Part shown: positions 2,154-61,295 of the stretch, in pieces
How the letters are laid out: the number at the start of each line of letters is the position of its first letter
Numbering within the stretch: position 1 is the stretch's first letter
Assembly (NCBI RefSeq): GCF_055900595.2
Contig: NZ_CM148325.1
Length of the DNA stretch: 64,000 nucleotides
Direction: 5' to 3' (one strand)
Notes under the pieces: model-generated
Databases searched by the model: none
What the model was told of the DNA's origin: nothing
Seen by the model: only the letters and a program-made list of their open reading frames with translations
Position numbers and translations under genes: made by a program

Positions 2154-3257
2154 ATGAAAAATGTTGGTTTTATCGGCTGGCGCGGTATGGTCGGCTCCGT
2201 TCTCATGCAACGCATGGTTGAAGAGCGCGACTTCGACGCCATTCGCCCTGTCTTCTTTTCTACTTCTCAGCTTGGCCAGGCTGCGCCGTCTTTTGGCGGA
2301 ACCACTGGCACACTTCAGGATGCCTTTGATCTGGAGGCGCTAAAGGCCCTCGATATCATTGTGACCTGTCAGGGCGGCGATTATACCAACGAAATCTATC
2401 CAAAGCTTCGTGAAAGCGGATGGCAAGGTTACTGGATTGACGCAGCATCATCTCTGCGCATGAAAGATGACGCCATCATCATTCTTGACCCCGTCAATCA
2501 GGACGTCATTACCGACGGATTAAATAATGGCATCAGGACTTTTGTTGGCGGTAACTGTACCGTAAGCCTGATGTTGATGTCGTTGGGGGGTTTATTCGCC
2601 AATGATCTTGTTGATTGGGTGTCCGTTGCAACCTACCAGGCCGCTTCCGGCGGTGGTGCGCGACATATGCGTGAGTTATTAACCCAGATGGGCCATCTGT
2701 ATGGCCATGTGGCAGATGAACTCGCGACCCCGTCCTCTGCTATTCTCGATATCGAACGCAAAGTCACAACTTTAACCCGTAGCGGTGAGCTGCCGGTGGA
2801 TAACTTTGGCGTGCCGCTGGCGGGTAGCCTGATTCCGTGGATCGACAAACAGCTCGATAACGGTCAGAGCCGCGAAGAGTGGAAAGGGCAGGCGGAAACC
2901 AACAAGATCCTCAACACATCTTCCGTAATTCCGGTAGATGGTTTATGTGTGCGTGTCGGGGCATTGCGCTGCCACAGCCAGGCATTCACTATTAAATTGA
3001 AAAAAGATGTGTCTATTCCGACCGTGGAAGAACTACTGGCTGCGCACAATCCGTGGGCGAAAGTCGTTCCGAACGATCGGGAAATCACTATGCGTGAGCT
3101 AACCCCAGCTGCCGTTACCGGCACGCTGACCACGCCGGTAGGCCGTCTGCGTAAGCTGAATATGGGGCCGGAGTTCCTGTCAGCCTTTACCGTGGGCGAC
3201 CAGCTGCTGTGGGGGGCCGCGGAGCCGCTGCGTCGGATGCTTCGTCAACTGGCGTAA
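2154..3257 (+). CDS. asd: Aspartate-semialdehyde dehydrogenase
   Basis: ORF 2031..3257 contains [24 protein letters not shown] at the internal ATG 2154, the recognised Asd N-terminus (367 aa); the upstream extension in the ORF track is rejected. Confidence 0.93.
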
Positions 3258-3529
3258 TCTTTATTCATTAAATCTGGGGCGCGTTGCCGCCCCTGTTAGT
3301 GCGTAATACAGGAGTAAGCGCAGATGTTTCATGATTTACCGGGAGTTAAATAGAGCATTGGCTATTCTTTAAGGGTGGCGGAATACAAGAGTATTTACAG
3401 CCTTACCTGAAGTGAGGACGACGCAGAGAGGATGCACAGAGTGCTGCGCCGTTCAGGTCAAAAAAATGTCACAACCAGAAGTCAAAAATTCAGTTGGATG
3501 GGGTGACACAATAAAACAGGAAGACAAGC

Positions 3530-5716
3530 ATGTCCGATCGTATCGATAGAGACGTGATTAACGCGCTAATTGCAGGCCATTTTGCGGATCCTTTTTCTGT
3601 ACTGGGAATGCATAAAACCACCGCGGGACTGGAAGTCCGTGCCCTTTTACCCGACGCTACCGATGTGTGGGTGATTGAACCGAAAACCGGGCGCAAACTC
3701 GCAAAACTGGAGTGTCTCGACTCCCGTGGATTCTTTAGCGGTGTCATTCCGCGACGTAAGAATTTTTTCCGCTATCAGTTGGCTGTTGTCTGGCATGGTC
3801 AGCAAAACCTGATAGATGATCCTTACCGTTTTGGTCCGCTAATCCAGGAAATGGATGCCTGGCTATTATCTGAAGGTACGCATCTGCGCCCATATGAAAC
3901 CTTAGGCGCGCATGCAGATACTATGGATGGCGTCACGGGTACGCGTTTTTCTGTCTGGGCTCCAAACGCCCGCCGGGTCTCGGTAGTCGGTCAATTCAAC
4001 TACTGGGACGGTCGCCGTCACCCGATGCGCCTGCGTAAAGAGAGCGGCATCTGGGAACTGTTTATCCCTGGGGCGCACAACGGTCAGCTCTATAAATACG
4101 AGATGATTGATGCCAATGGCAACTTGCGTCTGAAGTCCGACCCTTATGCCTTCGAAGCGCAAATGCGCCCGGAAACCGCGTCTCTTATTTGCGGGCTGCC
4201 GGAAAAGGTTGTGCAGACTGAAGAGCGCAAAAAGGCGAATCAGTTTGATGCGCCAATCTCTATTTATGAAGTTCACCTGGGCTCCTGGCGTCGCCACACC
4301 GACAACAATTTCTGGTTGAGCTACCGCGAGCTGGCCGATCAACTGGTGCCTTATGCTAAATGGATGGGCTTTACCCACCTCGAACTGCTGCCCATTAACG
4401 AGCATCCGTTCGATGGCAGTTGGGGTTATCAGCCAACCGGCCTGTATGCACCGACCCGCCGTTTTGGTACCCGCGACGACTTCCGTTATTTCATTGATGC
4501 CGCACACGCAGCTGGTCTGAACGTGATTCTCGACTGGGTACCAGGCCACTTCCCGACCGATGACTTTGCGCTTGCCGAATTTGATGGCACGAACTTGTAT
4601 GAACACAGCGATCCGCGCGAAGGCTACCATCAGGACTGGAATACGCTGATCTACAACTATGGTCGCCGTGAAGTCAGTAACTTCCTTGTCGGTAATGCGC
4701 TTTACTGGATCGAACGTTTTGGTATTGATGCGCTGCGCGTCGATGCTGTGGCATCAATGATTTATCGCGACTACAGCCGCAAAGAGGGGGAGTGGATCCC
4801 GAACGAATTTGGCGGGCGCGAGAATCTTGAAGCGATTGAATTCTTGCGTAATACCAACCGTATTCTTGGTGAGCAGGTTTCCGGTGCGGTGACAATGGCG
4901 GAAGAGTCTACCGATTTCCCTGGCGTTTCTCGTCCGCAGGACATGGGGGGTCTGGGCTTCTGGTACAAGTGGAATCTCGGCTGGATGCATGACACCCTGG
5001 ACTATATGAAGCTCGACCCGATTTATCGTCAGTATCATCACGGTAAGCTCACCTTCGGGATGCTCTATAACTACACTGAAAACTTCGTCCTGCCGTTGTC
5101 GCATGATGAAGTGGTCCACGGTAAAAAATCGATTCTCGACCGGATGCCGGGCGACGCATGGCAGAAATTCGCTAACTTGCGCGCCTACTATGGCTGGATG
5201 TGGGCATTCCCGGGCAAGAAACTGCTGTTCATGGGGAACGAATTTGCCCAGGGCCGTGAGTGGAACCATGACGCCAGCCTCGACTGGCATCTGTTGGAAG
5301 GCGGCGATAACTGGCACCACGGTGTCCAGCGTCTGGTGCGCGATCTGAACCTCACCTACCGCCACCATAAAGCGATGCATGAACTGGATTTTGACCCGTA
5401 CGGTTTTGAATGGCTGGTGGTGGATGACAAAGAACGCTCGGTGCTGATCTTTGTGCGTCGCGATAAAGAGGGTAACGAAATCATCGTTGCCAGTAACTTT
5501 ACTCCAGTGCCGCGTCATGATTATCGCTTCGGCATTAACCAGCCGGGTAAATGGCGTGAGATCCTCAATACCGATTCCATGCACTATCACGGCAGTAATG
5601 CAGGCAATGGCGGCACGGTTCACAGCGATGAGATTGCCAGCCATGGTCGTCAGCATTCACTGAGCCTGACGCTACCACCGCTGGCCACTATCTGGCTGGT
5701 TCGGGAGGCAGAATGA
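3530..5716 (+). CDS. glgB: 1,4-alpha-glucan branching enzyme
   Basis: 728-aa ORF recognised as GlgB (GH13 family); first gene of the glycogen cluster. Confidence 0.97.
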
Positions 5717-7686
5717 CACAACTCGCCATTGGCAAACCCGCACCCCTCGGCGCGCATTACGACGGTCAGGGCGTCAACTTCACACTTTTCTCCGCTCATG
5801 CCGAGCGGGTAGAACTGTGTATCTTTGACGCCAATGGCCAGGAACATCGCTATGACTTGCCAGGGCACAGTGGCGACATTTGGCACGGTTATCTGCCGGA
5901 TGCGCGCCCGGGTTTGCGTTATGGTTATCGCGTTCATGGCCCCTGGCGACCCGCCGAGGGACATCGCTTTAACCCAGCGAAGTTGTTGATTGATCCTTGC
6001 GCGCGGCAAATTGACGGGGAGTTTAAAGATAACCCGCTGCTGCACGCAGGTCATAATGAACCTGACTATCGCGACAACGCCGCCATTGCGCCGAAATGTG
6101 TAGTGGTGGTTGATCACTATGACTGGGAGGATGATGCCCCGCCGCGCACGCCGTGGGGCAGCACTATCATTTATGAAGCCCATGTCAAAGGATTAACGTA
6201 TCTGCACCCGGAGATCCCCGTCGATATCCGCGGCACTTATAAAGCCCTGGGGCATCCGGTGATGATCAACTATTTGAAACAGTTGGGCATTACTGCGCTG
6301 GAGTTGCTGCCGGTGGCACAATTTGCCAGCGAACCACGCCTGCAACGTATGGGGTTAAGTAACTACTGGGGCTATAACCCGGTAGCGATGTTTGCGCTGC
6401 ATCCGGCGTATGCCTGCTCGCCAGAAACGGCGCTGAATGAGTTTCGCGATGCAATCAAAGCACTGCATAAAGCGGGTATCGAAGTCATTCTTGATATCGT
6501 GCTTAACCATAGTGCGGAACTGGACCTCGACGGTCCGTTATTCTCTCTGCGTGGGATCGACAACCGTAGCTATTATTGGATAAGAGAAGACGGTGATTAT
6601 CACAATTGGACAGGCTGTGGCAACACGCTCAATTTGAGTCATCCGGCGGTGGTGGATTATGCCAGCGCCTGCCTGCGTTATTGGGTAGAAACCTGCCACG
6701 TCGATGGTTTCCGTTTTGATCTGGCGGCAGTCATGGGCCGTACGCCTGAGTTCCGTCAGGATGCGCCGTTGTTTACCGCAATTCAGAACTGCCCGGTGCT
6801 CTCGCAGGTGAAGTTAATTGCCGAACCGTGGGATATTGCGCCTGGTGGTTATCAGGTGGGAAATTTCCCGCCATTGTTTGCTGAGTGGAACGATCATTTC
6901 CGTGATGCTGCCCGTCGTTTCTGGCTGCATTATGATTTGCCTCTGGGGGCGTTTGCCGGGCGTTTTGCTGCCTCCAGCGATGTTTTTAAACGTAATGGTC
7001 GTCTGCCGAGTGCCGCGATTAATCTCGTCACCGCGCATGACGGTTTTACGCTTCGCGACTGCGTTTGCTTCAACCATAAACACAATGAAGCAAACGGAGA
7101 AGAAAATCGCGACGGGACCAACAACAATCACAGTAACAATCATGGTAAAGAAGGATTAGGCGGTACTCTTGACCTGGTTGAACGGCGGCGCGACAGCATT
7201 CACGCCCTGTTAACAACGTTGTTGCTCTCCCAGGGTACGCCGATGTTACTGGCCGGTGACGAACATGGTCATAGCCAGCATGGCAATAACAATGCCTACT
7301 GTCAGGATAATCAATTAACCTGGTTGGACTGGTCGCAGGCAAGCAGTGGTTTAACCGCATTTACCGCCGCGTTAATCCATCTGCGCAAGCGCATTCCCGC
7401 TTTGGTGGAGAATCGCTGGTGGGAAGAAGGCGACGGCAATGTCCGTTGGCTAAATCGATATGCTCAACCTTTAAGCACGGATGAGTGGCAAAACGGGCCG
7501 AAACAGCTGCAAATTCTGCTCTCGGATCGCTTTTTGATCGCAATTAACGCCACGCTTGAGGTAACAGAGATTGTTTTACCTGCTGGGGAGTGGCACGCCA
7601 TTCCCCCATTCGCTGGAGAGGATAACCCAGTGATTACGGCTGTCTGGCAGGGACCTGCACACGGATTGTGTGTGTTCCAGAGATGA
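5713..7686 (+). CDS. glgX: Glycogen debranching enzyme
   Basis: 657-aa ORF recognised as GlgX; its start overlaps the glgB stop in an ATGA (5713-5716). Confidence 0.97.
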
Positions 7687-7703
7687 TAAAAAAGGAGTTA
7701 GTC

Positions 7704-8999
7704 ATGGTTAGTTTAGAGAAGAACGATCACTTAATGTTGGCGCGCCAGCTGCCATTGAAATCTGTTGCCCTGATACTGGCGGGAGGACGTGGTACCCGCC
7801 TGAAGGATTTAACCAATAAGCGAGCAAAACCGGCCGTACACTTCGGCGGTAAGTTCCGCATTATCGACTTTGCACTGTCTAACTGCATCAACTCCGGGAT
7901 CCGTCGTATGGGCGTGATCACCCAGTACCAGTCCCATACTCTGGTGCAGCACATTCAGCGCGGCTGGTCATTCTTCAATGAAGAAATGAACGAGTTTGTC
8001 GATCTGTTGCCAGCGCAGCAGAGAATGAAAGGGGAAAACTGGTATCGCGGCACCGCAGATGCGGTCACGCAAAACCTCGACATTATTCGCCGTTACAAAG
8101 CGGAATATGTGGTGATCCTGGCGGGCGACCATATCTACAAGCAAGACTACTCGCGTATGCTTATCGACCACGTCGAAAAAGGCGCACGTTGCACCGTCGC
8201 TTGTATGCCTGTACCGATTGAAGAAGCCTCCGCATTTGGCGTTATGGCGGTTGATGAGAACGATAAAATTATCGAATTCGTTGAAAAACCCGCTAACCCG
8301 CCGTCAATGCCGAACGATCCGAGCAAATCTCTGGCGAGCATGGGTATCTACGTCTTTGACGCCGACTATCTGTATGAACTGCTGGAAGAAGACGATCGCG
8401 ATGAGAACTCCAGCCACGACTTTGGTAAAGATTTGATTCCCAAAATCACCGAAGCCGGTCTGGCCTATGCGCACCCGTTCCCGCTCTCTTGCGTACAATC
8501 CGACCCGGATGCCGAGCCGTACTGGCGCGATGTGGGTACGCTTGAAGCTTACTGGAAAGCGAACCTCGATCTGGCATCAGTGGTGCCGGAACTGGATATG
8601 TACGATCGCAATTGGCCAATTCGCACCTACAATGAATCATTACCGCCAGCGAAATTCGTGCAAGATCGCTCCGGTAGCCACGGGATGACCCTTAACTCAC
8701 TGGTTTCCGGCGGTTGTGTGATCTCCGGTTCGGTGGTGGTGCAGTCCGTTCTGTTCTCGCGCGTTCGCGTGAATTCATTCTGCAACATTGATTCCGCCGT
8801 ATTGTTACCGGAAGTATGGGTAGGTCGCTCGTGCCGTCTGCGCCGCTGCGTCATTGATCGTGCTTGTGTTATTCCGGAAGGCATGGTGATTGGTGAAAAC
8901 GCAGAGGAAGATGCACGTCGTTTCTATCGTTCAGAAGAAGGCATCGTGCTGGTAACGCGCGAAATGCTACGGAAGTTAGGGCATAAACAGGAGCGATAA
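7704..8999 (+). CDS. glgC: Glucose-1-phosphate adenylyltransferase (ADP-glucose pyrophosphorylase)
   Basis: ORF 7668..8999; canonical N-terminus [18 protein letters not shown] begins at ATG 7704, preceded by AAGGAG (Shine-Dalgarno); 431 aa. Confidence 0.96.
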
Positions 9000-10432
9000 T
9001 GCAGGTTTTACATGTATGTTCAGAGATGTTCCCGCTGCTTAAAACCGGCGGTCTGGCTGATGTTATTGGGGCATTACCCGCAGCACAAATCGCAGACGGC
9101 GTTGACGCTCGCGTACTGTTGCCTGCATTTCCCGATATTCGCCGTGGCGTAACCGATGCGCAGGTGGTATCTCGCCGTGATACCTTCGCAGGGCATATCA
9201 CGCTGTTGTTCGGCCATTACAACGGGGTTGGCATTTACCTGATTGACGCGCCGCATCTCTATGATCGTCCGGGAAGCCCGTATCACGATACCAACTTATT
9301 TGCCTACACTGACAACGTATTGCGTTTTGCGCTGTTGGGGTGGGTTGGGGCAGAAATGGCCAGCGGGCTTGACCCATTCTGGCGCCCTGATGTGGTGCAT
9401 GCGCACGACTGGCATGCGGGCCTTGCGCCTGCGTATCTGGCGGCGCGCGGGCGTCCGGCGAAGTCGGTGTTTACTGTGCACAACCTGGCCTATCAAGGCA
9501 TGTTTTATGCACATCACATGAATGACATCCAATTGCCATGGTCATTCTTTAATATTCATGGGCTGGAATTCAACGGACAAATCTCTTTCCTGAAGGCTGG
9601 TCTGTACTATGCCGATCATATTACGGCGGTCAGCCCGACCTACGCTCGCGAGATCACCGAACCGCAGTTTGCCTACGGTATGGAAGGTCTGTTGCAACAG
9701 CGTCACCGTGAAGGGCGTCTTTCCGGCGTACTAAACGGCGTGGATGAAAAAATCTGGAGTCCAGAGACGGACTTACTGTTGGCCTCGCGTTACACCCGCG
9801 ATACGTTGGAAGATAAAGCGGAGAATAAGCGCCAGTTACAAATCGCAATGGGGCTTAAGGTTGACGATAAAGTGCCGCTTTTTGCAGTGGTGAGCCGTCT
9901 GACCAGCCAGAAAGGTCTCGACCTGGTGCTGGAAGCCTTACCAGGCCTTCTGGAGCAGGGCGGACAGCTGGCGCTACTCGGCGCGGGTGATCCGGTGTTG
10001 CAGGAAGGTTTCCTTGCCGCGGCCGCGGAATATCCCGGACAAGTGGGCGTTCAGATTGGCTATCACGAAGCATTTTCGCATCGCATTATGGGCGGCGCGG
10101 ACGTCATTCTGGTGCCCAGCCGTTTTGAACCGTGCGGCTTAACGCAACTTTATGGATTGAAGTACGGTACGCTGCCGTTAGTGCGGCGCACCGGTGGGCT
10201 TGCTGATACGGTTTCTGACTGTTCTCTTGAGAACCTTGCAGATGGCGTCGCCAGTGGGTTTGTCTTTGAAGATAGTAATGCCTGGTCGCTGTTACGGGCT
10301 ATTCGACGTGCTTTTGTACTGTGGTCCCGTCCTTCACTGTGGCGGTTTGTGCAACGTCAGGCTATGGCAATGGATTTTAGCTGGCAGGTCGCGGCGAAGT
10401 CGTACCGTGAGCTTTACTATCGCTTGAAATAG
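8999..10432 (+). CDS. glgA: Glycogen synthase
   Basis: 477-aa ORF recognised as GlgA; its ATG shares one nucleotide with the glgC stop (TAATG). Confidence 0.97.
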
Positions 10433-12898
<2,466 letters not shown>

Positions 12899-12915
12899 GT
12901 TCACTAAAAAATAGA

Positions 12916-12944
12916 ACGGGGCCAAATCGGTCCCGTTTTTTTTT
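12916..12944 (+). terminator. Rho-independent terminator of the glg operon (ACGGGGCC-aaatc-GGTCCCGT + T9)
   Basis: GC-rich hairpin immediately followed by nine T residues, 18 nt after the glgP stop. Confidence 0.75.
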
Positions 12945-12992
12945 GCCTTTATTTCGGAGAAGTGTCCAGAGGGGCAAGGGGACTCGGGGGAG

Positions 12993-12998
12993 TATAAT
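12993..12998 (+). promoter_or_regulatory. Candidate -10 hexamer (TATAAT) upstream of the PstS-like module; no convincing -35
   Basis: Perfect TATAAT seen ~20 nt upstream of the first ORF of the insert; spacing to any TTGACA-like hexamer is poor, so this is tentative. Confidence 0.25.
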
Positions 12999-13015
12999 TT
13001 CGCCATTCAGAAAGA

Positions 13016-14533
13016 ATGGAAAGAATAATGCAAAACAGAAAATGGATTTTGACCTCGCTGATAATGACTTTTTTCGGCATCCCCATACTGACGCAATTTT
13101 TGGCAGCGGTTATTGCCATGCTGGGGGCCGGGCTTGCCGCTATTCTTGAGGTTTGCAATTTTCTCTTTACGCCAACAATTTATCTTCTACTCAACGTCTT
13201 TATGCTGACGCTGGGGGCGATAATTCTATTTTTCTCTGGTCGCGTGTGGGCCGGTGATAGCGCACCAGAAAACAGAGAAATAGCCGTCTGGCGGCAATGC
13301 TTTTTTCTTTTACCTGCACTGTTAACTCTGGTTGGCTGGATAATCACGCTACATCTGGCAGATTATCAATTTCGCCAAATGGGAGCAGGTTGGTTGGCAG
13401 AGCTTATGCTCCCCTGGCTGGGAGTTTTGTTAGTCTCATTAGTCGGAGGTGAGTTCTGGTGGATAGTCATTATACCCGTTGGTGCGCATATTAGTTTTTC
13501 GCTGGGGTATGGCTGGCCGACCAGATATCCTTTAACCGGCACGTACGGGTTACGTTGCCGTAATTCCCTCCTGTTTATCCTTCTTATGCTTGGTTTTATC
13601 GCTGGTTATCAGGCTTATTTATATAAACAGCTTAATCCCGGCGTCGGTGTGCGTGAAAATATTGATACCTGGGCCTGGCGACCCGATAAACTCAATAATC
13701 AACTGACGCCACTGCGTGGTAAACCGCAAATTCAGTTTACACAAAACTGGCTGCGACTCGATGGTGCTACGGCGGCGTACCCAATTTATGCTTCTGCCTT
13801 TTATGCGTTGAGCGTTATACCGGAAGATTTCCACACCTGGGAATATCTGGAGAACTCTCGTACCCCCGATGCATATAACAGGATTGTTAAAGGTGATGCC
13901 GATATTATTTTTGTGGCGCAACCTTCCGGTGGGCAGAAAAAACGCGCAGAGGAATCGGGCGTCACTTTGAACTACACTCCTTTCGCCCGTGAAGCATTCG
14001 TTTTCATCGTCAATGCGGATAACCCGGTTAATTCCCTGACTGACCAACAGGTGCGTGACATCTTCAGTGGCGCAATTACCAACTGGCGTACTGTTGGCGG
14101 TAACGATCAGGAGATCCAGACCTGGCAACGCCCGGAAGACTCTGGCAGCCAGACAGTGATGCAATCGCAGGTCATGAAAAATGTCCGCATGATCTCGCCG
14201 CAGGAAACCGAAGTGGCAAGCATGATGGAGGGAATGATTAAAGTTGTTGCCGAATACCGTAATACAAACAACTCAATAGGCTACACCTTCCGCTATTACG
14301 CAACACAAATGAACGCTGACAAGAATATCAAATTAGTAGCGATTAACGGTATTGCACCGACTGCGGAAAATATTCGTAACGGCAAATATCCGTATATCGT
14401 CGATGCCTTTATGGTAACGCGGGAAAATACTACGTCAGAAACACAAAAACTGGTCGAATGGTTTTTAACGCCGCAGGGGCAGAGTCTGGTGGAAGATGTG
14501 GGTTATGTACCGTTGCATACAACAATGAAATAA
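13016..14533 (+). CDS. Fusion protein: N-terminal polytopic membrane domain (~200 aa) + C-terminal PstS-like (phosphate-binding-protein-like) periplasmic domain
   Basis: 505-aa ORF; the N-terminal part has several long hydrophobic segments; the C-terminal part carries the motif QQVRDIFSGAITNWRTVGG...RPEDSGSQTVM, which I recognise as typical of PstS/PBP-like-2 binding proteins. Start could be ATG 13016 or 13028. Confidence 0.7.
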   Translation: MERIMQNRKWILTSLIMTFFGIPILTQFLAAVIAMLGAGLAAILEVCNFLFTPTIYLLLNVFMLTLGAIILFFSGRVWAGDSAPENREIAVWRQCFFLLPALLTLVGWIITLHLADYQFRQMGAGWLAELMLPWLGVLLVSLVGGEFWWIVIIPVGAHISFSLGYGWPTRYPLTGTYGLRCRNSLLFILLMLGFIAGYQAYLYKQLNPGVGVRENIDTWAWRPDKLNNQLTPLRGKPQIQFTQNWLRLDGATAAYPIYASAFYALSVIPEDFHTWEYLENSRTPDAYNRIVKGDADIIFVAQPSGGQKKRAEESGVTLNYTPFAREAFVFIVNADNPVNSLTDQQVRDIFSGAITNWRTVGGNDQEIQTWQRPEDSGSQTVMQSQVMKNVRMISPQETEVASMMEGMIKVVAEYRNTNNSIGYTFRYYATQMNADKNIKLVAINGIAPTAENIRNGKYPYIVDAFMVTRENTTSETQKLVEWFLTPQGQSLVEDVGYVPLHTTMK

Positions 14534-14558
14534 CTTTTGAGAGAACGGAATCAGCGCG

Positions 14559-15551
14559 ATGAATAAATTCATAGGCGTTTTACTGCTAGGTGCGGTTTTA
14601 CTGGCGGGATGTGTCGACCGGGAAGGGTACTATAACAGCGTCAGGGAAGAAGAGAGTCATGGACTGACGTCTCTGCGGGGGCAACCTGAATTACGTTACA
14701 ACGATGATTGGTCAAGATGGCCGAGAGTGTACGGCGCTACAGCCTTATACCCGCTGTATGCCTCCGCGTATTATGAATTAGTACCCGAGCCAAAAGATAA
14801 GGATCGAACCTCGCTGGCCTGGCAGGCGTATGGTTTGCAACAAACCCGAACAGCTGAAGCCTACGATAGTCTGATCAAGGGTACCGCGACGGTTATTTTT
14901 GTTGCACAACCGTCGGAAGGACAGAAAAAACGTGCAGAAGAAGCAGGCGTTAAACTGAAATATACCGCGTTTGCCCGCGAAGCCTTTGTCTTTATCGTTG
15001 ATATCAAAAACCCGGTTAATTCACTTAGCGAACAGCAGGTCAAAGACATTTTTAGCGGTAAAGTGAGTCGCTGGAATAAAGTGGGCGGCGGTGACGAAAG
15101 TATAAAAGTCTGGCAGCGGCCAGAAGATTCTGGAAGCCAAACGGTTATGAAGGGACTGGTTATGCAAGATACTCCAATGCTGCCAGCCAAAAAATCCACT
15201 GTTATCGATCTTATGGGCGGTTTAATTACCGAAGTCGCCGACTACAAAAATACACCATCTTCTATTGGATACACTTTCCACTATTACGTCACACGTATGA
15301 ATGACAATATGCTCAAAATGCGCAAACAGATCAAACTGCTGGCTATAAATGGCGTTGCACCTACAGAGGAAAATATCCGTAACGGCACTTATCCGTACAT
15401 GATTGATGCTTATATGGTGACGCACGAAACCCCTACGCTGGAAACGCAGAAATTCGTCGACTGGTTTTTAAGCCCGCAGGGACAGCAATTGGTAGAGGAT
15501 GTGGGGTATGTGCCGATTCATGACGCATCATACGAATCATCAGTGCAATAA
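14559..15551 (+). CDS. PstS-like periplasmic binding lipoprotein (paralog of the C-terminal domain of the upstream gene)
   Basis: 330-aa ORF; N-terminus MNKFIGVLLLGAVLLAGC has a signal peptide with lipobox (LAGC); aligns by eye with the upstream ORF, e.g. IFVAQPSEGQKKRAEEAGVKLKYTAFAREAFVFIV against IFVAQPSGGQKKRAEESGVTLNYTPFAREAFVFIV. Confidence 0.75.
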   Translation: MNKFIGVLLLGAVLLAGCVDREGYYNSVREEESHGLTSLRGQPELRYNDDWSRWPRVYGATALYPLYASAYYELVPEPKDKDRTSLAWQAYGLQQTRTAEAYDSLIKGTATVIFVAQPSEGQKKRAEEAGVKLKYTAFAREAFVFIVDIKNPVNSLSEQQVKDIFSGKVSRWNKVGGGDESIKVWQRPEDSGSQTVMKGLVMQDTPMLPAKKSTVIDLMGGLITEVADYKNTPSSIGYTFHYYVTRMNDNMLKMRKQIKLLAINGVAPTEENIRNGTYPYMIDAYMVTHETPTLETQKFVDWFLSPQGQQLVEDVGYVPIHDASYESSVQ

Positions 15552-16153
15552 TGATGAATAAAATCAGACTTTATATTCCTCCGTTAATTCTTGGTTTTGT
15601 TATTGTGCCGTTGTTGGTGTGGCCGACGGTGGTTGCGCTGGCTGCTTCTGTTATCACGCTGAGTTTTCTGGGAGAGATACTGTTCTCTATCCCGCTCATG
15701 ATCAGGCGTATTTCACTTCTGCAATTACAACTATGGTTATCGGCTGAATATGCGCTTTTCTGCTGTGCAATGGTGGGCGTTGGTTGGCAATTTGCTCGTA
15801 TAACTCAATCTGAATTGAAAAGCAGACTGCATTGTTGGCTGGTATTTGCACCAGTTTATTTCTGGTTGCTCCTGTGGAATATCATTTTCTATGTCGCGCC
15901 AGCGAATATTGCGTTGCTGGAGAATATGCGCAGTTTCTTTCTGACAGTTGTCTGGCTCCCACTAAATTTTTCGCCATTTTGGTCTCAACCGTGGATTGAC
16001 TTTGTCGGTCCAATAAGCGCACAGCTTGGTTTTGCGTTGGGATATTATTGCCAGTGGCGTAGCAAAAATAGAAGCCAGATACGGAAGTGGAGTGAGTGGG
16101 GAACGTGCCTGAGTTTTGTTACGTTGGGTATGATGGCGTGGGCTTTGCGGTAA
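15551..16153 (+). CDS. Small polytopic membrane protein, paralog of the N-terminal membrane domain of the fusion gene at 13016
   Basis: 200-aa hydrophobic ORF; its start overlaps the upstream stop (TAATG); segment FVGPISAQLGFALGYY resembles IPVGAHISFSLGYGW in the N-terminal domain of the 505-aa ORF. Confidence 0.6.
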   Translation: MMNKIRLYIPPLILGFVIVPLLVWPTVVALAASVITLSFLGEILFSIPLMIRRISLLQLQLWLSAEYALFCCAMVGVGWQFARITQSELKSRLHCWLVFAPVYFWLLLWNIIFYVAPANIALLENMRSFFLTVVWLPLNFSPFWSQPWIDFVGPISAQLGFALGYYCQWRSKNRSQIRKWSEWGTCLSFVTLGMMAWALR

Positions 16154-16205
16154 TTCCCTGACTCAAAAAGTAGGTCAGATTGTTGACAAAGTGCGCTTTG
16201 TTCAT

Positions 16206-16302
16206 GCCGGATGCGACATGAACGTCTTATTGGCCTACAAGACCATGCAAATTCAATATATTGCATAAGCCACGTAGGCCTGATAAGCGTAGCGCATCAG
16301 GC
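16206..16302. repeat. Pair of REP elements (BIME-like) in opposite orientation; the second forms a hairpin followed by T6
   Basis: gccggatgcgacatgaacgtcttattggcctac (16206-16238) and gtaggcctgataagcgtagcgcatcaggc (16274-16302) match the E. coli REP palindromic-unit pattern; followed by agttttttg. Confidence 0.6.
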
Positions 16303-27398: not shown

Positions 27399-29816
<2,418 letters not shown>

Positions 29817-45685: not shown

Positions 45686-46969
45686 ATGCAACTTACCAAC
45701 GAAGAACAAGTACAGATTGCTCGTATAAAAGAAAAAATCCCACGCATTGCCGCACTGGATCCTGAATGTAAGTTATTCGGTTCTGAAGGTTGGAAATATC
45801 AATGGCCGAAGCCTGCCAGCGAGGCGGAAATAGCTTCCTGGGAGAAAAAACATAGCGTCACTTTGCCACGGGAATATCGAATTTTTCTTCGCTATATCGC
45901 TAATGGCGGTCCGGCACATGCCTACGGTCTTGAATCTTTAGGCGGTACAGATATTTATGGCGATATAACAAAAGAAAGCCCTGTACCGCTTTATATGACG
46001 CAGCAGGATGTTGATGTGTTGAATGCTGGCCGTACAGAAGATGATGAAGAATATAGTTTTTTTGACGGCGCATTGACCATTCTCACCCTGGGATGTACTT
46101 ATGATATTTGCCTGGTGGTGACGGGGCAGTATCGCGGAAGGTTAATGCTGACTGATGGTGATGAAGATTATCCGTTTGATTTTATATATGATAAAAATTT
46201 CCTCAACTGGTATGAACGCTGGCTGGACGATTTTATTGCTGGCATGAGTATGAAGGGTTTCGATAGAAGTTTGCCAGGAACGCAAATTCAACTGCGTGAG
46301 TGGTTTTTAACTGAGAAAATCCCGGATTTACGTAGATCCATTTTATTCTCGCTATGCCGTTTTCCACAGATAGAACCCGAAACATTTGCCCTTTGGGAAC
46401 ATGTTTGCCACACAGAGAATGATAAAGAATTGTGTGAAGAGGCATTCATAAGATTACGCCAAAAAAAAGTTTCTTGTGCTGCAGATATTTTTCGACTCTA
46501 TTTTACAATGCCAGATGAATTACGTGATATTGCTATTAAAGATCTCCGTTTTGCCTGTAGAGATAGTGTGGTGAATATTGAGGATTATATTCATTCACTG
46601 TTAATAATAATGCCTGAACTTGACGATGACACTCTATCCTCAGCTGTCTTTGCTATACGAGAAACAGAGTATAATAAATATGATACTTTTCTGCCGCTTC
46701 TCGAACGTATCACTGATGACCGTCAGCAAACATTATTGTGGGCGATGAGTAAGGCGCCTGATTTCAATGAAAGCCGAGGATTCATTGAGTTGGTATTACC
46801 GCTTTTTGCATCATCAAAGATGGAGAATGTAAGGAAGGCTATTTTGTTGCTCATTGAAGTTAAAGATAATCGTATTCCACCATTGGTTGATGAAGCTGCA
46901 ACTCGTTTCCCTGAACTGACCATTTTACGAGAAAACTACTATCTCAGGACGTGGGGACATAAGCCATAA
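45686..46969 (+). CDS. SMI1/KNR4 (SUKH-1)-like domain protein with C-terminal helical-repeat region; accessory gene
   Basis: 427-aa ORF (ATG 45686 with AGGAA 8 nt upstream); motif WEKKHSVTLPREYRIFLRYIANGG and downstream FFDGALTILTLG...GRLMLTDGDEDYPF match the SMI1/KNR4 signature as I recall it; GC content visibly lower than the flanking genes. Confidence 0.7.
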   Translation: MQLTNEEQVQIARIKEKIPRIAALDPECKLFGSEGWKYQWPKPASEAEIASWEKKHSVTLPREYRIFLRYIANGGPAHAYGLESLGGTDIYGDITKESPVPLYMTQQDVDVLNAGRTEDDEEYSFFDGALTILTLGCTYDICLVVTGQYRGRLMLTDGDEDYPFDFIYDKNFLNWYERWLDDFIAGMSMKGFDRSLPGTQIQLREWFLTEKIPDLRRSILFSLCRFPQIEPETFALWEHVCHTENDKELCEEAFIRLRQKKVSCAADIFRLYFTMPDELRDIAIKDLRFACRDSVVNIEDYIHSLLIIMPELDDDTLSSAVFAIRETEYNKYDTFLPLLERITDDRQQTLLWAMSKAPDFNESRGFIELVLPLFASSKMENVRKAILLLIEVKDNRIPPLVDEAATRFPELTILRENYYLRTWGHKP

Positions 46970-47006
46970 ATTAATGGTTCAGAAATGATCTAACGCGGAG
47001 AAAAAT

Positions 47007-47537
47007 ATGATCAGGGAACATATTCAGCAAGCGATAAATAATAGGTTAGCCTTTGATGGCCCATTCAATGTTGTTCCTGAACCTGCAAGCACTGCGTTTG
47101 ATAGCCGGATCCCGACATTGAAAAACGGTGTCTGGCAGAAGGCCAGCCCTATGTTGCAGGCGCGTTTTGCACATTGTGGACGTTGGTTAAGCGCTACACA
47201 TGGAAGCTGGCTAAGTATAAGTGACATGGAAACGCTTTGGCAGGAACACATAGAAGATACGTTTCTTGATGAAATCAAAATGAATGCTGTAGCTTCAAGT
47301 GATAATTGGGATAACCATGCCTTGGGACTATTTCGTTCTCATCGCCTGTCACTTTTTGCCGGTAGTGATTACAGTTATGAAATGGTTTTTCTCCTTTGGC
47401 TAGATAGTACCGTTGAGCCAGAGGTCTGGGTTTATGACTGCAATGGGGAATCACGTTATAAAGATCTTAATGATTACCTGAATGCATATATTAATGATGA
47501 CGTAAGCGCCTGTGAGTGCTCCTGGCGAGTAGAATGA
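47007..47537 (+). CDS. Small hypothetical protein, possibly SUKH-superfamily-like; accessory gene
   Basis: 176-aa ORF with GCGGAG ribosome-binding site; C-terminal segment LFAGSDYSYEMVFLLWLDSTVEPEVWVYDCNGESRYKDLNDYLNAYI resembles the C-terminal half of SUKH-type immunity domains (weak, by eye). Confidence 0.6.
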   Translation: MIREHIQQAINNRLAFDGPFNVVPEPASTAFDSRIPTLKNGVWQKASPMLQARFAHCGRWLSATHGSWLSISDMETLWQEHIEDTFLDEIKMNAVASSDNWDNHALGLFRSHRLSLFAGSDYSYEMVFLLWLDSTVEPEVWVYDCNGESRYKDLNDYLNAYINDDVSACECSWRVE

Positions 47538-48160
47538 ATAGCCCCCCTTGCCCCTTTGATCCACAAACCGCACATTACCTCGGCACAGTGCAAATCCACT
47601 ACACCCAAACCGCCTTCAACGCTGCCGTTAAGCATTATACCTGTTACATTAAAAAGCGTTTTAAAGGGTTTAAATGGGGAATCCGAACCGCTGGCTTATT
47701 GGCTATACTGCCCATGATCCCACAATGGTTGAAACCTTCTCATGACTTTAAACTCAACGCAATCAGTACGTTAATTCTTCTATTAATGTTGCCACTCCTC
47801 TTATCAATGTTCCTGTTAATCAGCAGAAGAATTAACGATTTTAAGTCAAAAACAAAGCAAGTTACTTTTACGAAACCCGTGCGTTATGCGTTTTATTTCG
47901 AGGGGATTGTTTTTTATGAATCTCATCAGCAGGGCATACTTCGCTGGGAAGATTTTTATAGCATTGAGTATGAAGAAGATTATTTGTGGCTTTTTCTGCA
48001 TTTACCGAAGAGTTGTCCCAGAGAAGCGACGAAAGCGTTTTGCGATATTTTCATTCCCACCAGTGCGATAAAAGCGCAGCCTGAACTGGATACGTTTTTT
48101 CGTGAAACACGCCACTCGCTGGATTATCTGTTTGTCCCGTTTAATTCTGACAGAAAATAA
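47534..48160 (+). CDS. Two-helix membrane protein with a C-terminal domain resembling YcxB-like / bacterial PH-like domains; accessory gene
   Basis: ORF 47516..48160; the probable ATG 47534 overlaps the upstream stop in an ATGA (translational coupling); two hydrophobic helices (LLAILPMIPQWL, ISTLILLLMLPLLLSMFLLI) are followed by a soluble ~100-aa domain. Confidence 0.55.
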   Translation: MNSPPCPFDPQTAHYLGTVQIHYTQTAFNAAVKHYTCYIKKRFKGFKWGIRTAGLLAILPMIPQWLKPSHDFKLNAISTLILLLMLPLLLSMFLLISRRINDFKSKTKQVTFTKPVRYAFYFEGIVFYESHQQGILRWEDFYSIEYEEDYLWLFLHLPKSCPREATKAFCDIFIPTSAIKAQPELDTFFRETRHSLDYLFVPFNSDRK

Positions 48161-59976: not shown

Positions 59977-60756
59977 ATGGCATTTAAGATCTGGCAAATT
60001 GGTTTGCATTTACAACAGCAAGAAGCGGTGGCGGTTGCGATCGTGCGGGGCGCAAAAGAATGCTTTTTGCAACGCTGGTGGCGGTTGCCGCTGGCGAACG
60101 ACATAATCAAAGATGGGCGGATTGTCGATGCACAGCGGCTGGCTAAAACGTTGTTACCGTGGAGTCGCGAACTGCCGCAGCGTCATCACATTATGTTGGC
60201 GTTTCCCGCCAGTCGCACATTACAGCGGTCATTTCCGCGCCCGTCGATGTCCCTTGGTGAGCGGGAGCAAACGGCCTGGCTGTCCGGGACGATGGCCCGC
60301 GAGCTGGATATGGATCCGGACTCCCTGCGCTTCGATTACAGCGAAGACTCACTCAGTCCCGCCTATAACGTGACTGCCGCGCAAAGCAAAGAGCTGGCAA
60401 CGCTGCTTACTTTGGCAGAAAGGTTGCGTGTTCATGTTAGTGCGATCACCCCGGATGCCAGTGCATTACAGCGATTCCTGCCTTTTTTACCTTCTCATCA
60501 GCAATGTCTGGCCTGGCGTGATAACGAACAGTGGCTGTGGGCGACGCGCTATAGCTGGGGGCGCAAACTGGCGGTGGGGATGACTAGCGCGAAGGAGCTG
60601 GCGGCAGCGTTATCCGTTGATCCCGAAAGCGTCGCGCTATGTGGCGAAGGCGGATTTGACCCGTGGGAGGCGGTTTCTGTTCGTCAGCCGCCGCTACCGC
60701 CGCCAGGTGGAGACTTTGCCATCGCGCTGGGGCTGGCGCTAGGGAAGGCGTACTGA
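59977..60756 (+). CDS. hofM: PilM-like type IV pilus / DNA-utilization assembly protein HofM
   Basis: ORF 59950..60756; recognised N-terminus MAFKIWQIGLHLQQQ at the internal ATG (259 aa). Confidence 0.9.
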   Translation: MAFKIWQIGLHLQQQEAVAVAIVRGAKECFLQRWWRLPLANDIIKDGRIVDAQRLAKTLLPWSRELPQRHHIMLAFPASRTLQRSFPRPSMSLGEREQTAWLSGTMARELDMDPDSLRFDYSEDSLSPAYNVTAAQSKELATLLTLAERLRVHVSAITPDASALQRFLPFLPSHQQCLAWRDNEQWLWATRYSWGRKLAVGMTSAKELAAALSVDPESVALCGEGGFDPWEAVSVRQPPLPPPGGDFAIALGLALGKAY

Positions 60757-61295
60757 TGAACCCGCCAATTAATTTTTTGCCCTGGCGACAGCAACGCCGG
60801 ACCGCTTTTCTTCGTTTCTGGTTGCTGATGTTCGTTGCGCCTCTGCTGCTGACCGTCGGGATAACGCTAATATTGCGTCTGACAAGCAACGCCGAAGCTC
60901 GCGTAGATGCCGTTTTGCTTCAGGCGGAACAACAACTCGCCCACAGCTTACAAATAACGAAACCACGTTTGCTGGAGCGCCAACAAATTCGTGAGCAGCG
61001 TTTGCAAAGGCAGCGCCAGCGACAATTTACCCGTGACTGGCAATCTGCGCTGGAAGCACTGGCGGCGCTTTTACCCGAGCACGCCTGGCTGACAACGATA
61101 AGCTGGCAGCAGGGAACGCTGGAGATCAAGGGGCTAACAACAAGCATTACCGCGTTAAACGCGCTGGAAACGTCACTCCGCCAGGATGCTTCTTTTCATC
61201 TCAATCAGCGGGGGGCCACGCAGCAGGATGCGCAGGGACGCTGGCAATTTGAGTATCAGTTAACAAGGAAGGTTAGCGATGGACATGCTCTTTGA
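60756..61295 (+). CDS. hofN: PilN-like protein HofN
   Basis: ORF 60663..61295; recognised start MNPPINFLPWRQQRR at ATG 60756, which shares one nucleotide with the hofM stop (TGATG); 179 aa. Confidence 0.9.
   Translation: MNPPINFLPWRQQRRTAFLRFWLLMFVAPLLLTVGITLILRLTSNAEARVDAVLLQAEQQLAHSLQITKPRLLERQQIREQRLQRQRQRQFTRDWQSALEALAALLPEHAWLTTISWQQGTLEIKGLTTSITALNALETSLRQDASFHLNQRGATQQDAQGRWQFEYQLTRKVSDGHAL

Follow-up and report, generated by a model that had tools for sequence, protein, structure and literature searches.

The canonical glgBXCAP glycogen operon in an Escherichia coli chromosome segment, with a glgC leader identical to the CsrA target of K-12

Glycogen metabolism genes occupy positions 3530-12944 of the stretch of DNA analysed here, which comprises 64,000 nucleotides of contig NZ_CM148325.1 (RefSeq assembly GCF_055900595.2) and is referred to throughout as the window. 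The window is a segment of an E. coli chromosome, and this region is almost certainly the canonical Escherichia coli glgBXCAP glycogen operon, a textbook locus already known in detail, to which an earlier note on the same DNA adds nothing new by its description. Across 3000-13200 the sequence differs from that of strain E200086 (NZ_CM128605.1) by 1 mismatch in 10,201 bases, and 5423 of 5426 complete E. coli genomes contain the locus with at least 80% coverage. Its known CsrA-controlled element, the leader of glgC, is base-for-base identical to that of E. coli K-12 over 7570-7760, which includes the RNA with published binding of the post-transcriptional regulator CsrA. By this 100% identity we infer that CsrA represses glgC here as well, as has been demonstrated experimentally on the K-12 sequence.

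The genes themselves were identified by family models. Coordinates were taken from the list of open reading frames (ORFs) together with the RefSeq annotation of the near-identical record NZ_CM128605.1, and all five products (5/5) score above the curated NCBIfam cut-off of the model for their own enzyme:
3530-5716, + strand: glgB, 1,4-alpha-glucan branching enzyme, 728 amino acids (TIGR01515, 1117 bits, cut-off 464)
5713-7686, + strand: glgX, glycogen debranching enzyme, 657 amino acids (NF002983, 1369.5 bits, cut-off 901)
7704-8999, + strand: glgC, glucose-1-phosphate adenylyltransferase, 431 amino acids (NF001947, 771 bits, cut-off 470)
8999-10432, + strand: glgA, glycogen synthase, 477 amino acids (NF001899, 806 bits, cut-off 459)
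10451-12898, + strand: glgP, glycogen phosphorylase, 815 amino acids (NF011562, 1849.7 bits, cut-off 1546)

They follow one another in the order glgB, glgX, glgC, glgA, glgP on one strand, as expected of an operon, and the extent of the region (9,415 bases) agrees with the 9.4 kilobases that the earlier note had given for the five glycogen genes. Judged by homology, GlgC would make ADP-glucose, GlgA would polymerise it and GlgB would add the branches, and the polymer would be degraded by GlgP together with GlgX.

Outside the operon, the window holds a paralog of glgP, which had been put forward as an internal control for annotation:
27423-29816, + strand: malP, maltodextrin phosphorylase (NF011561, 1705.3 bits, cut-off 1273)

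MalP and GlgP share 48% protein identity, and the pair does serve as such a control, each protein passing its own model and failing the cut-off of the other's. GlgP reaches 1849.7 bits with the glycogen phosphorylase model (cut-off 1546) but only 938.7 with the maltodextrin phosphorylase model (cut-off 1273); MalP reaches 1705.3 with the maltodextrin model and 878.2, below the cut-off, with the glycogen model. glgP and malP are distinguishable in the window annotation. The check confirms that this annotation is sound and, beyond annotation quality, matters little.

The compactness of the operon resides in its gene junctions, which were read from the sequence:
5713-5716, + strand: ATGA, a 4-nucleotide overlap of the glgX start with the glgB stop
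7687-7703, + strand: glgX-glgC spacer, 17 nucleotides, containing AAGGAG
8997-9001, + strand: TAATG, a 1-nucleotide overlap of the glgC stop with the glgA start
10433-10450, + strand: glgA-glgP spacer, 18 nucleotides (TTTTCAGGAAACGCCTAT), carrying the glgP ribosome-binding site (AGGA)

The ATGA and TAATG overlaps and the spacers of 17-18 base pairs elsewhere had all been described earlier, and each was found as described. With this anatomy, each ribosome-binding site would lie within or just past the preceding gene, and the overlapping or abutting junctions would allow coupled or closely coordinated translation. Overlaps of -4 and -1, the commonest spacings, and short spacers are usual inside bacterial operons, so close packing alone is nothing out of the ordinary.

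The junctions were followed across the order by a GlgC scan of species-representative genomes, which yielded 80 Enterobacterales loci, with the five genes in the same order in 68 species. A glgB/glgX overlap of -4 or -1 occurs in 55 of these 68 species, a glgX-glgC spacer of 10-17 nucleotides in 49, and a glgA-glgP spacer of 12-26 nucleotides in 55; a GGAG(T) core precedes glgC in nearly all 80 loci. On the other hand, the TAATG-type glgC/glgA overlap is found in only 18/68 species (Escherichia, Citrobacter, Enterobacter, Klebsiella, Lelliottia and relatives), and the others have a spacer of 28-151 nucleotides, save one outlier with an apparent 67-nucleotide overlap. GlgC has 431 amino acids where the TAATG overlap exists and mostly 425-430 (range 405-432) where it does not; the loci L012 and L022-L026 are among those in this comparison. 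Tight spacing is thus largely ancestral, whereas the glgC/glgA overlap is a lineage-specific state, which may interest specialists in operon evolution and leaves the understanding of operon regulation unchanged. As a side observation, some Cedecea, Yersinia and Edaphovirga (L041, L077, L079, L083) have an additional glgC-like gene that does not belong to a full glgBXCAP cluster, and Cedecea (L041) has a glgB-glgC-glgP arrangement in which glgX and glgA were not detected.

Within Escherichia, the junctions coincide with stretches that hardly vary. The window and K-12 show 0 differences in 7312-7760 and in the 300-nucleotide bin 10158-10457, against 2.9% over the whole operon. The stretch 7300-7760 is at least 99% identical in 5425/5425 matching E. 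coli genomes and the mid-glgX control 6300-6760 in only 18, a contrast that is partly due to the mid-glgX sequence of the window being a rare allele. Runs of invariant sequence were computed among the window, K-12, a representative of another Escherichia species and E. albertii:
10337-10458, + strand: the longest run, 122 nucleotides, covering the last 96 nucleotides of glgA, the spacer and the glgP start
3494-3576, + strand: run at the glgB start
8983-9057, + strand: run at the glgC/glgA junction
3307-3379, + strand: run of 73 nucleotides covering the small ORFs yhgP and yhgO
7667-7728, + strand: run at the glgC ribosome-binding site

These observations bear on the possibility that genome compaction left the overlaps and short spacers behind as neutral by-products, with no part in coordinating translation. 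The general prevalence of -4 and -1 spacings within operons speaks for it, as does the restriction of the glgC/glgA overlap to 18 of 68 species, most others having longer spacers. The order-wide conservation of the glgB/glgX overlap argues the other way, as do the longest invariant runs within Escherichia, which coincide with junctions, and the near-uniformity of 7300-7760 relative to mid-glgX, which points to selection on the junctions. We therefore regard a purely neutral origin as unlikely, though it is the best surviving of the alternatives, and retain the reading in which the junctions may help to coordinate translation.

Transcription of the five genes would run in one direction from one or more promoters upstream of glgB, with added starts for glgCAP (within glgX) and for glgAP (within glgC), as drawn from the literature, and would end at an intrinsic terminator past glgP. 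A glgB promoter for the entire operon and a promoter within glgC for glgAP have been described (in PMC10819704, among others), and a single glgBXCAP transcriptional unit is what Montero et al. (2011) assert in their title. Co-transcription of the five genes is taken from this literature and accords with the lack of any strong terminator within the operon. The site at which it would end was located by a terminator scan and by folding:
12913-12947, + strand: predicted intrinsic terminator, an 11-pair stem (27 nucleotides, 12913-12939) followed by nine T

Six of its 11 pairs are G-C, the loop has 5 nucleotides, and the predicted stability of -18.5 kcal/mol (z = -4.2) was equalled by 0 of 200 shuffled sequences. 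The site ranked first of the 14 terminator-like sites in the scan, which upholds the claim of a strong terminal terminator, and termination of the Rho-independent kind is accordingly predicted after glgP. Across the order, a strict and crude scan placed a terminator-like site no more than 150 nucleotides after glgP in 31 of 72 loci.

An older model divides the locus into a glgBX operon and an independent glgCAP operon, the 17-nucleotide spacer being the boundary across which transcripts would not read through from glgX to glgC. It draws on the deduced glgCAP transcription start inside glgX, at about 7570, and on the separate glgC promoter that is still listed, CRP activating glgCAP with no effect on glgBX (PMC10819704). 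However, no terminator-like site lies between the glgX end and glgC, and the nearest candidates on the + strand (6965-6980 and further upstream) are weak and inside the gene. The short glgX-glgC spacer is conserved in most species, as given above, and the single unit named in the title of Montero et al. (2011) also stands against such a division, which we consider improbable. The single glgBXCAP unit with additional internal starts is the arrangement adopted in what follows.

The known post-transcriptional control of the operon involves the glgC leader, whose features are as follows:
7570-7703, + strand: glgC (glgCAP) leader, 134 nucleotides, with its start site within glgX (+1 deduced from published primers)
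7657-7673, + strand: predicted high-affinity CsrA hairpin GCACAC-GGAUU-GUGUGU with a 5-nucleotide loop (minimum-free-energy fold; binding by identity to K-12)
7692-7697, + strand: glgC Shine-Dalgarno sequence AAGGAG, the second CsrA site (GGA at 7694-7696; PMC7652899, PMC2896534)

The map of this leader was rebuilt from the primer coordinates of PMC2896534 and from statements in PMC6028588 and PMC7652899. The primers of the published leader fragment span +46 to +179 (PMC2896534) and match 7615-7627 and 7734-7748 of the window, so that the fragment corresponds to 7615-7748 and both ends place +1 at 7570. The leader lies within the 3' coding sequence of glgX and contains six GGA motifs (7587, 7615, 7620, 7651, 7663 and 7694), a density in the top 0.6% of 134-nucleotide windows of the operon. 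Outside the ribosome-binding site, the footprinted CsrA site is ACGGA (PMC6028588), which stands at 7661-7665 with its GGA (7663-7665) in the loop of the predicted hairpin (-13.6 kcal/mol, z = -2.6). The other published site overlaps the ribosome-binding site (PMC7652899). The two GGA motifs are 31 nucleotides apart, inside the published bridging range of 10-63 nucleotides with an optimum above 18 (PMC7652899).

The earlier note had named AAGGAG at 7692-7697 as the glgC ribosome-binding region, which is found at exactly those positions, and had described the leader as a CsrA target, which is borne out by its identity to the K-12 leader and by the location of both published sites. The stretch 7600-7710, in which it proposed to look for GGA-containing hairpins, holds the hairpin at 7657-7673 with its loop GGA, and the comparison with published mapping that it also proposed places the primers, the ACGGA and the ribosome-binding-site GGA on the leader. 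A scan of the whole window with Rfam at gathering thresholds gave 0 matches and hence no curated RNA family over the glgC leader. In the published mechanism, a CsrA dimer tethered to the hairpin also binds, by bridging, at the ribosome-binding site and thereby blocks ribosome access (PMC7652899, PMC2896534); because the leader sequence is identical, this mechanism should apply here. One RNA-binding surface of the dimer would hold the GGA in the loop of 7657-7673, and the other would span the 31 nucleotides to the GGA within 7692-7697, where it would exclude the ribosome and repress glgC translation.

Since the loop GGA is also a glycine codon of glgX, the conservation of the hairpin has two possible sources. 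In 39 distinct sequences the upper stem is retained, and two of its pairs show compensatory changes. The loop GGA is kept in 26/31 Enterobacteriaceae, although GGA accounts for only 10% of the glycine codons of the operon, and in 0/13 Erwiniaceae-like sequences, which have GGY, GCY or GAC there. This pattern fits selection for a CsrA site acting in Enterobacteriaceae in addition to the coding constraint, and the retention of a rare codon in one family and not the other may interest specialists in the evolution of CsrA targets; the understanding of operon regulation is unchanged by it. That 7657-7673 is conserved only as code for the GlgX C-terminus (Ala-His-Gly-Leu/Val-Cys-Val), with GGA an incidental glycine codon, is very improbable: although the whole hairpin lies within glgX codons, Erwiniaceae combine a similar stem with GGY, GCY or GAC, and cross-genus third-position conservation over 7570-7686 is not above the operon mean (0.68 versus 0.665), the rare GGA is nevertheless retained in Enterobacteriaceae, two stem pairs are maintained by compensatory changes, and footprinting and mutagenesis of the exact ACGGA site changed CsrA repression (PMC6028588, PMC7652899).

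No finding contradicts this account, but several results qualify the picture of a tightly coupled operon with its literature promoters and a conserved CsrA hairpin. Because the glgC/glgA overlap is missing in 50/68 species, the operon does not depend on tight coupling at this point. A consensus scan gave no sigma-70-like promoter on the + strand, either upstream of glgB or inside the operon (glgX, glgC), so the promoters given here are those of the literature; shuffled sequences led to an expectation of 9.7 sites in the region, and the scan returned 2. A lower stem of the hairpin (7650-7654 with 7674-7678) was dropped, as it is not conserved. Finally, the CA/GU repeat of the upper stem pairs well even when the register is shifted (slides of -2 and +2), and the support from covariation is moderate.

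The plain reading of the invariant islands is that translation-initiation regions and the known leader are under constraint within the genus. The low-divergence valleys belong to Escherichia only, apart from a weak trace in Citrobacter that is gone in Enterobacter. Excess conservation at synonymous or third positions was sought in the five genes across the 68 species and 27 Enterobacteriaceae, and no cross-genus excess appeared; third positions showed no peak inside glgC or towards the end of glgX, where the value was 0.68 and the mean 0.665. It is conceivable, if rather doubtful, that the islands mark a second and so far undescribed post-transcriptional control point on glgP translation, exerted by CsrA or another factor. 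Candidates for it would be the run 10337-10458, which takes in the 3' end of glgA and the ribosome-binding site of glgP (CAGGAAAC), and a hairpin at 10532-10554 with GGA in its loop, inside the glgP 5' end. As to the sequences themselves, the glgP ribosome-binding site CAGGAA contains GGA. The hairpin (acgattgg-CAAGGAC-ccggtcgt), in the 5' coding region of glgP, has an 8-base-pair stem and is the sole GGA-in-loop hairpin of the operon with a stem longer than that of the glgC CsrA hairpin.

Apart from the islands, mid-glgX and the 3' half of glgP (5700-7300 and 11000-12900) carry unusually divergent alleles in this strain. The segment 6300-6760 is at least 99% identical in only 18 genomes, 95-99% identical in 5140 and 90-95% identical in 267. 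Such stretches suggest a rare lineage or an imported segment.

Upstream of glgB, annotation mapped from K-12 places the following features:
3258-3529, + strand: asd-glgB intergenic region, with the glgB promoter and leader
3324-3353, + strand: yhgP, small ORF of 9 amino acids
3331-3372, + strand: yhgO, small ORF of 13 amino acids

The intergenic region differs from K-12 at 6 of 272 bases, none of them within the small ORFs. Both yhgP and yhgO are intact and follow AGGAG, and possibly act as a leader peptide.

Downstream, three genes on the + strand occupy 13016-16153 between glgP and glpD, and encode two PstS-family/PBP_like_2 substrate-binding proteins and a 200-amino-acid ORF without a Pfam match. 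Of 5426 E. coli genomes, 882 carry the island in full, in most cases with only about 90% identity to the allele of the window, and its locus is therefore variable. The query 12950-16300 gave a median of 8 matches per E. coli genome, the weakest of those listed lying at its 3' end (16205-16300); for this reason a repeated element, possibly REP-like, may be present in 16154-16300, just upstream of the glpD 3' end. Farther away, a three-gene insert at about 45686-48160, between envZ and pckA, encodes an SMI1/KNR4-family protein and two hypothetical proteins, and the near-identical RefSeq record annotates hofN (about 60756-61295) as a pseudogene because of an internal stop.

Compared with known systems, the closest counterpart is glgBXCAP of E. 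coli K-12 MG1655 (b3432-b3428), which has the same genes in the same order and of the same lengths, with asd upstream and glpD downstream. The junction and spacer sequences and the glgC leader are identical in the two. The operons diverge by 2.9% at the nucleotide level, nearly all of it synonymous, with 10 amino acid changes in total (GlgB 3, GlgX 6, GlgC 0, GlgA 0, GlgP 1), the single change in GlgP occurring despite 4.1% nucleotide divergence. The K-12 terminator differs slightly in its loop and T-run, and only a yzgL remnant stands in K-12 where the window has the three-gene island.

The glg operons of other Enterobacterales (Kosakonia, Pantoea, Serratia, Yersinia and others) share the glgB-X-C-A-P order, the glgB/glgX overlap and, in most species, the short glgX-glgC and glgA-glgP spacers, but differ from the TAATG overlap of E. 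coli in their glgC-glgA spacer of 28-151 nucleotides, with a GlgC mostly of 425-430 amino acids. Those of Erwiniaceae furthermore lack the hairpin-loop GGA that Enterobacteriaceae keep. Among two-site leaders repressed by CsrA, those of glgC, cstA and ColE7 cel likewise combine a GGA in the loop of a short hairpin with a GGA in the ribosome-binding site. Within this class, glgC is the founding example and is particular in lying inside the coding sequence of the upstream gene.

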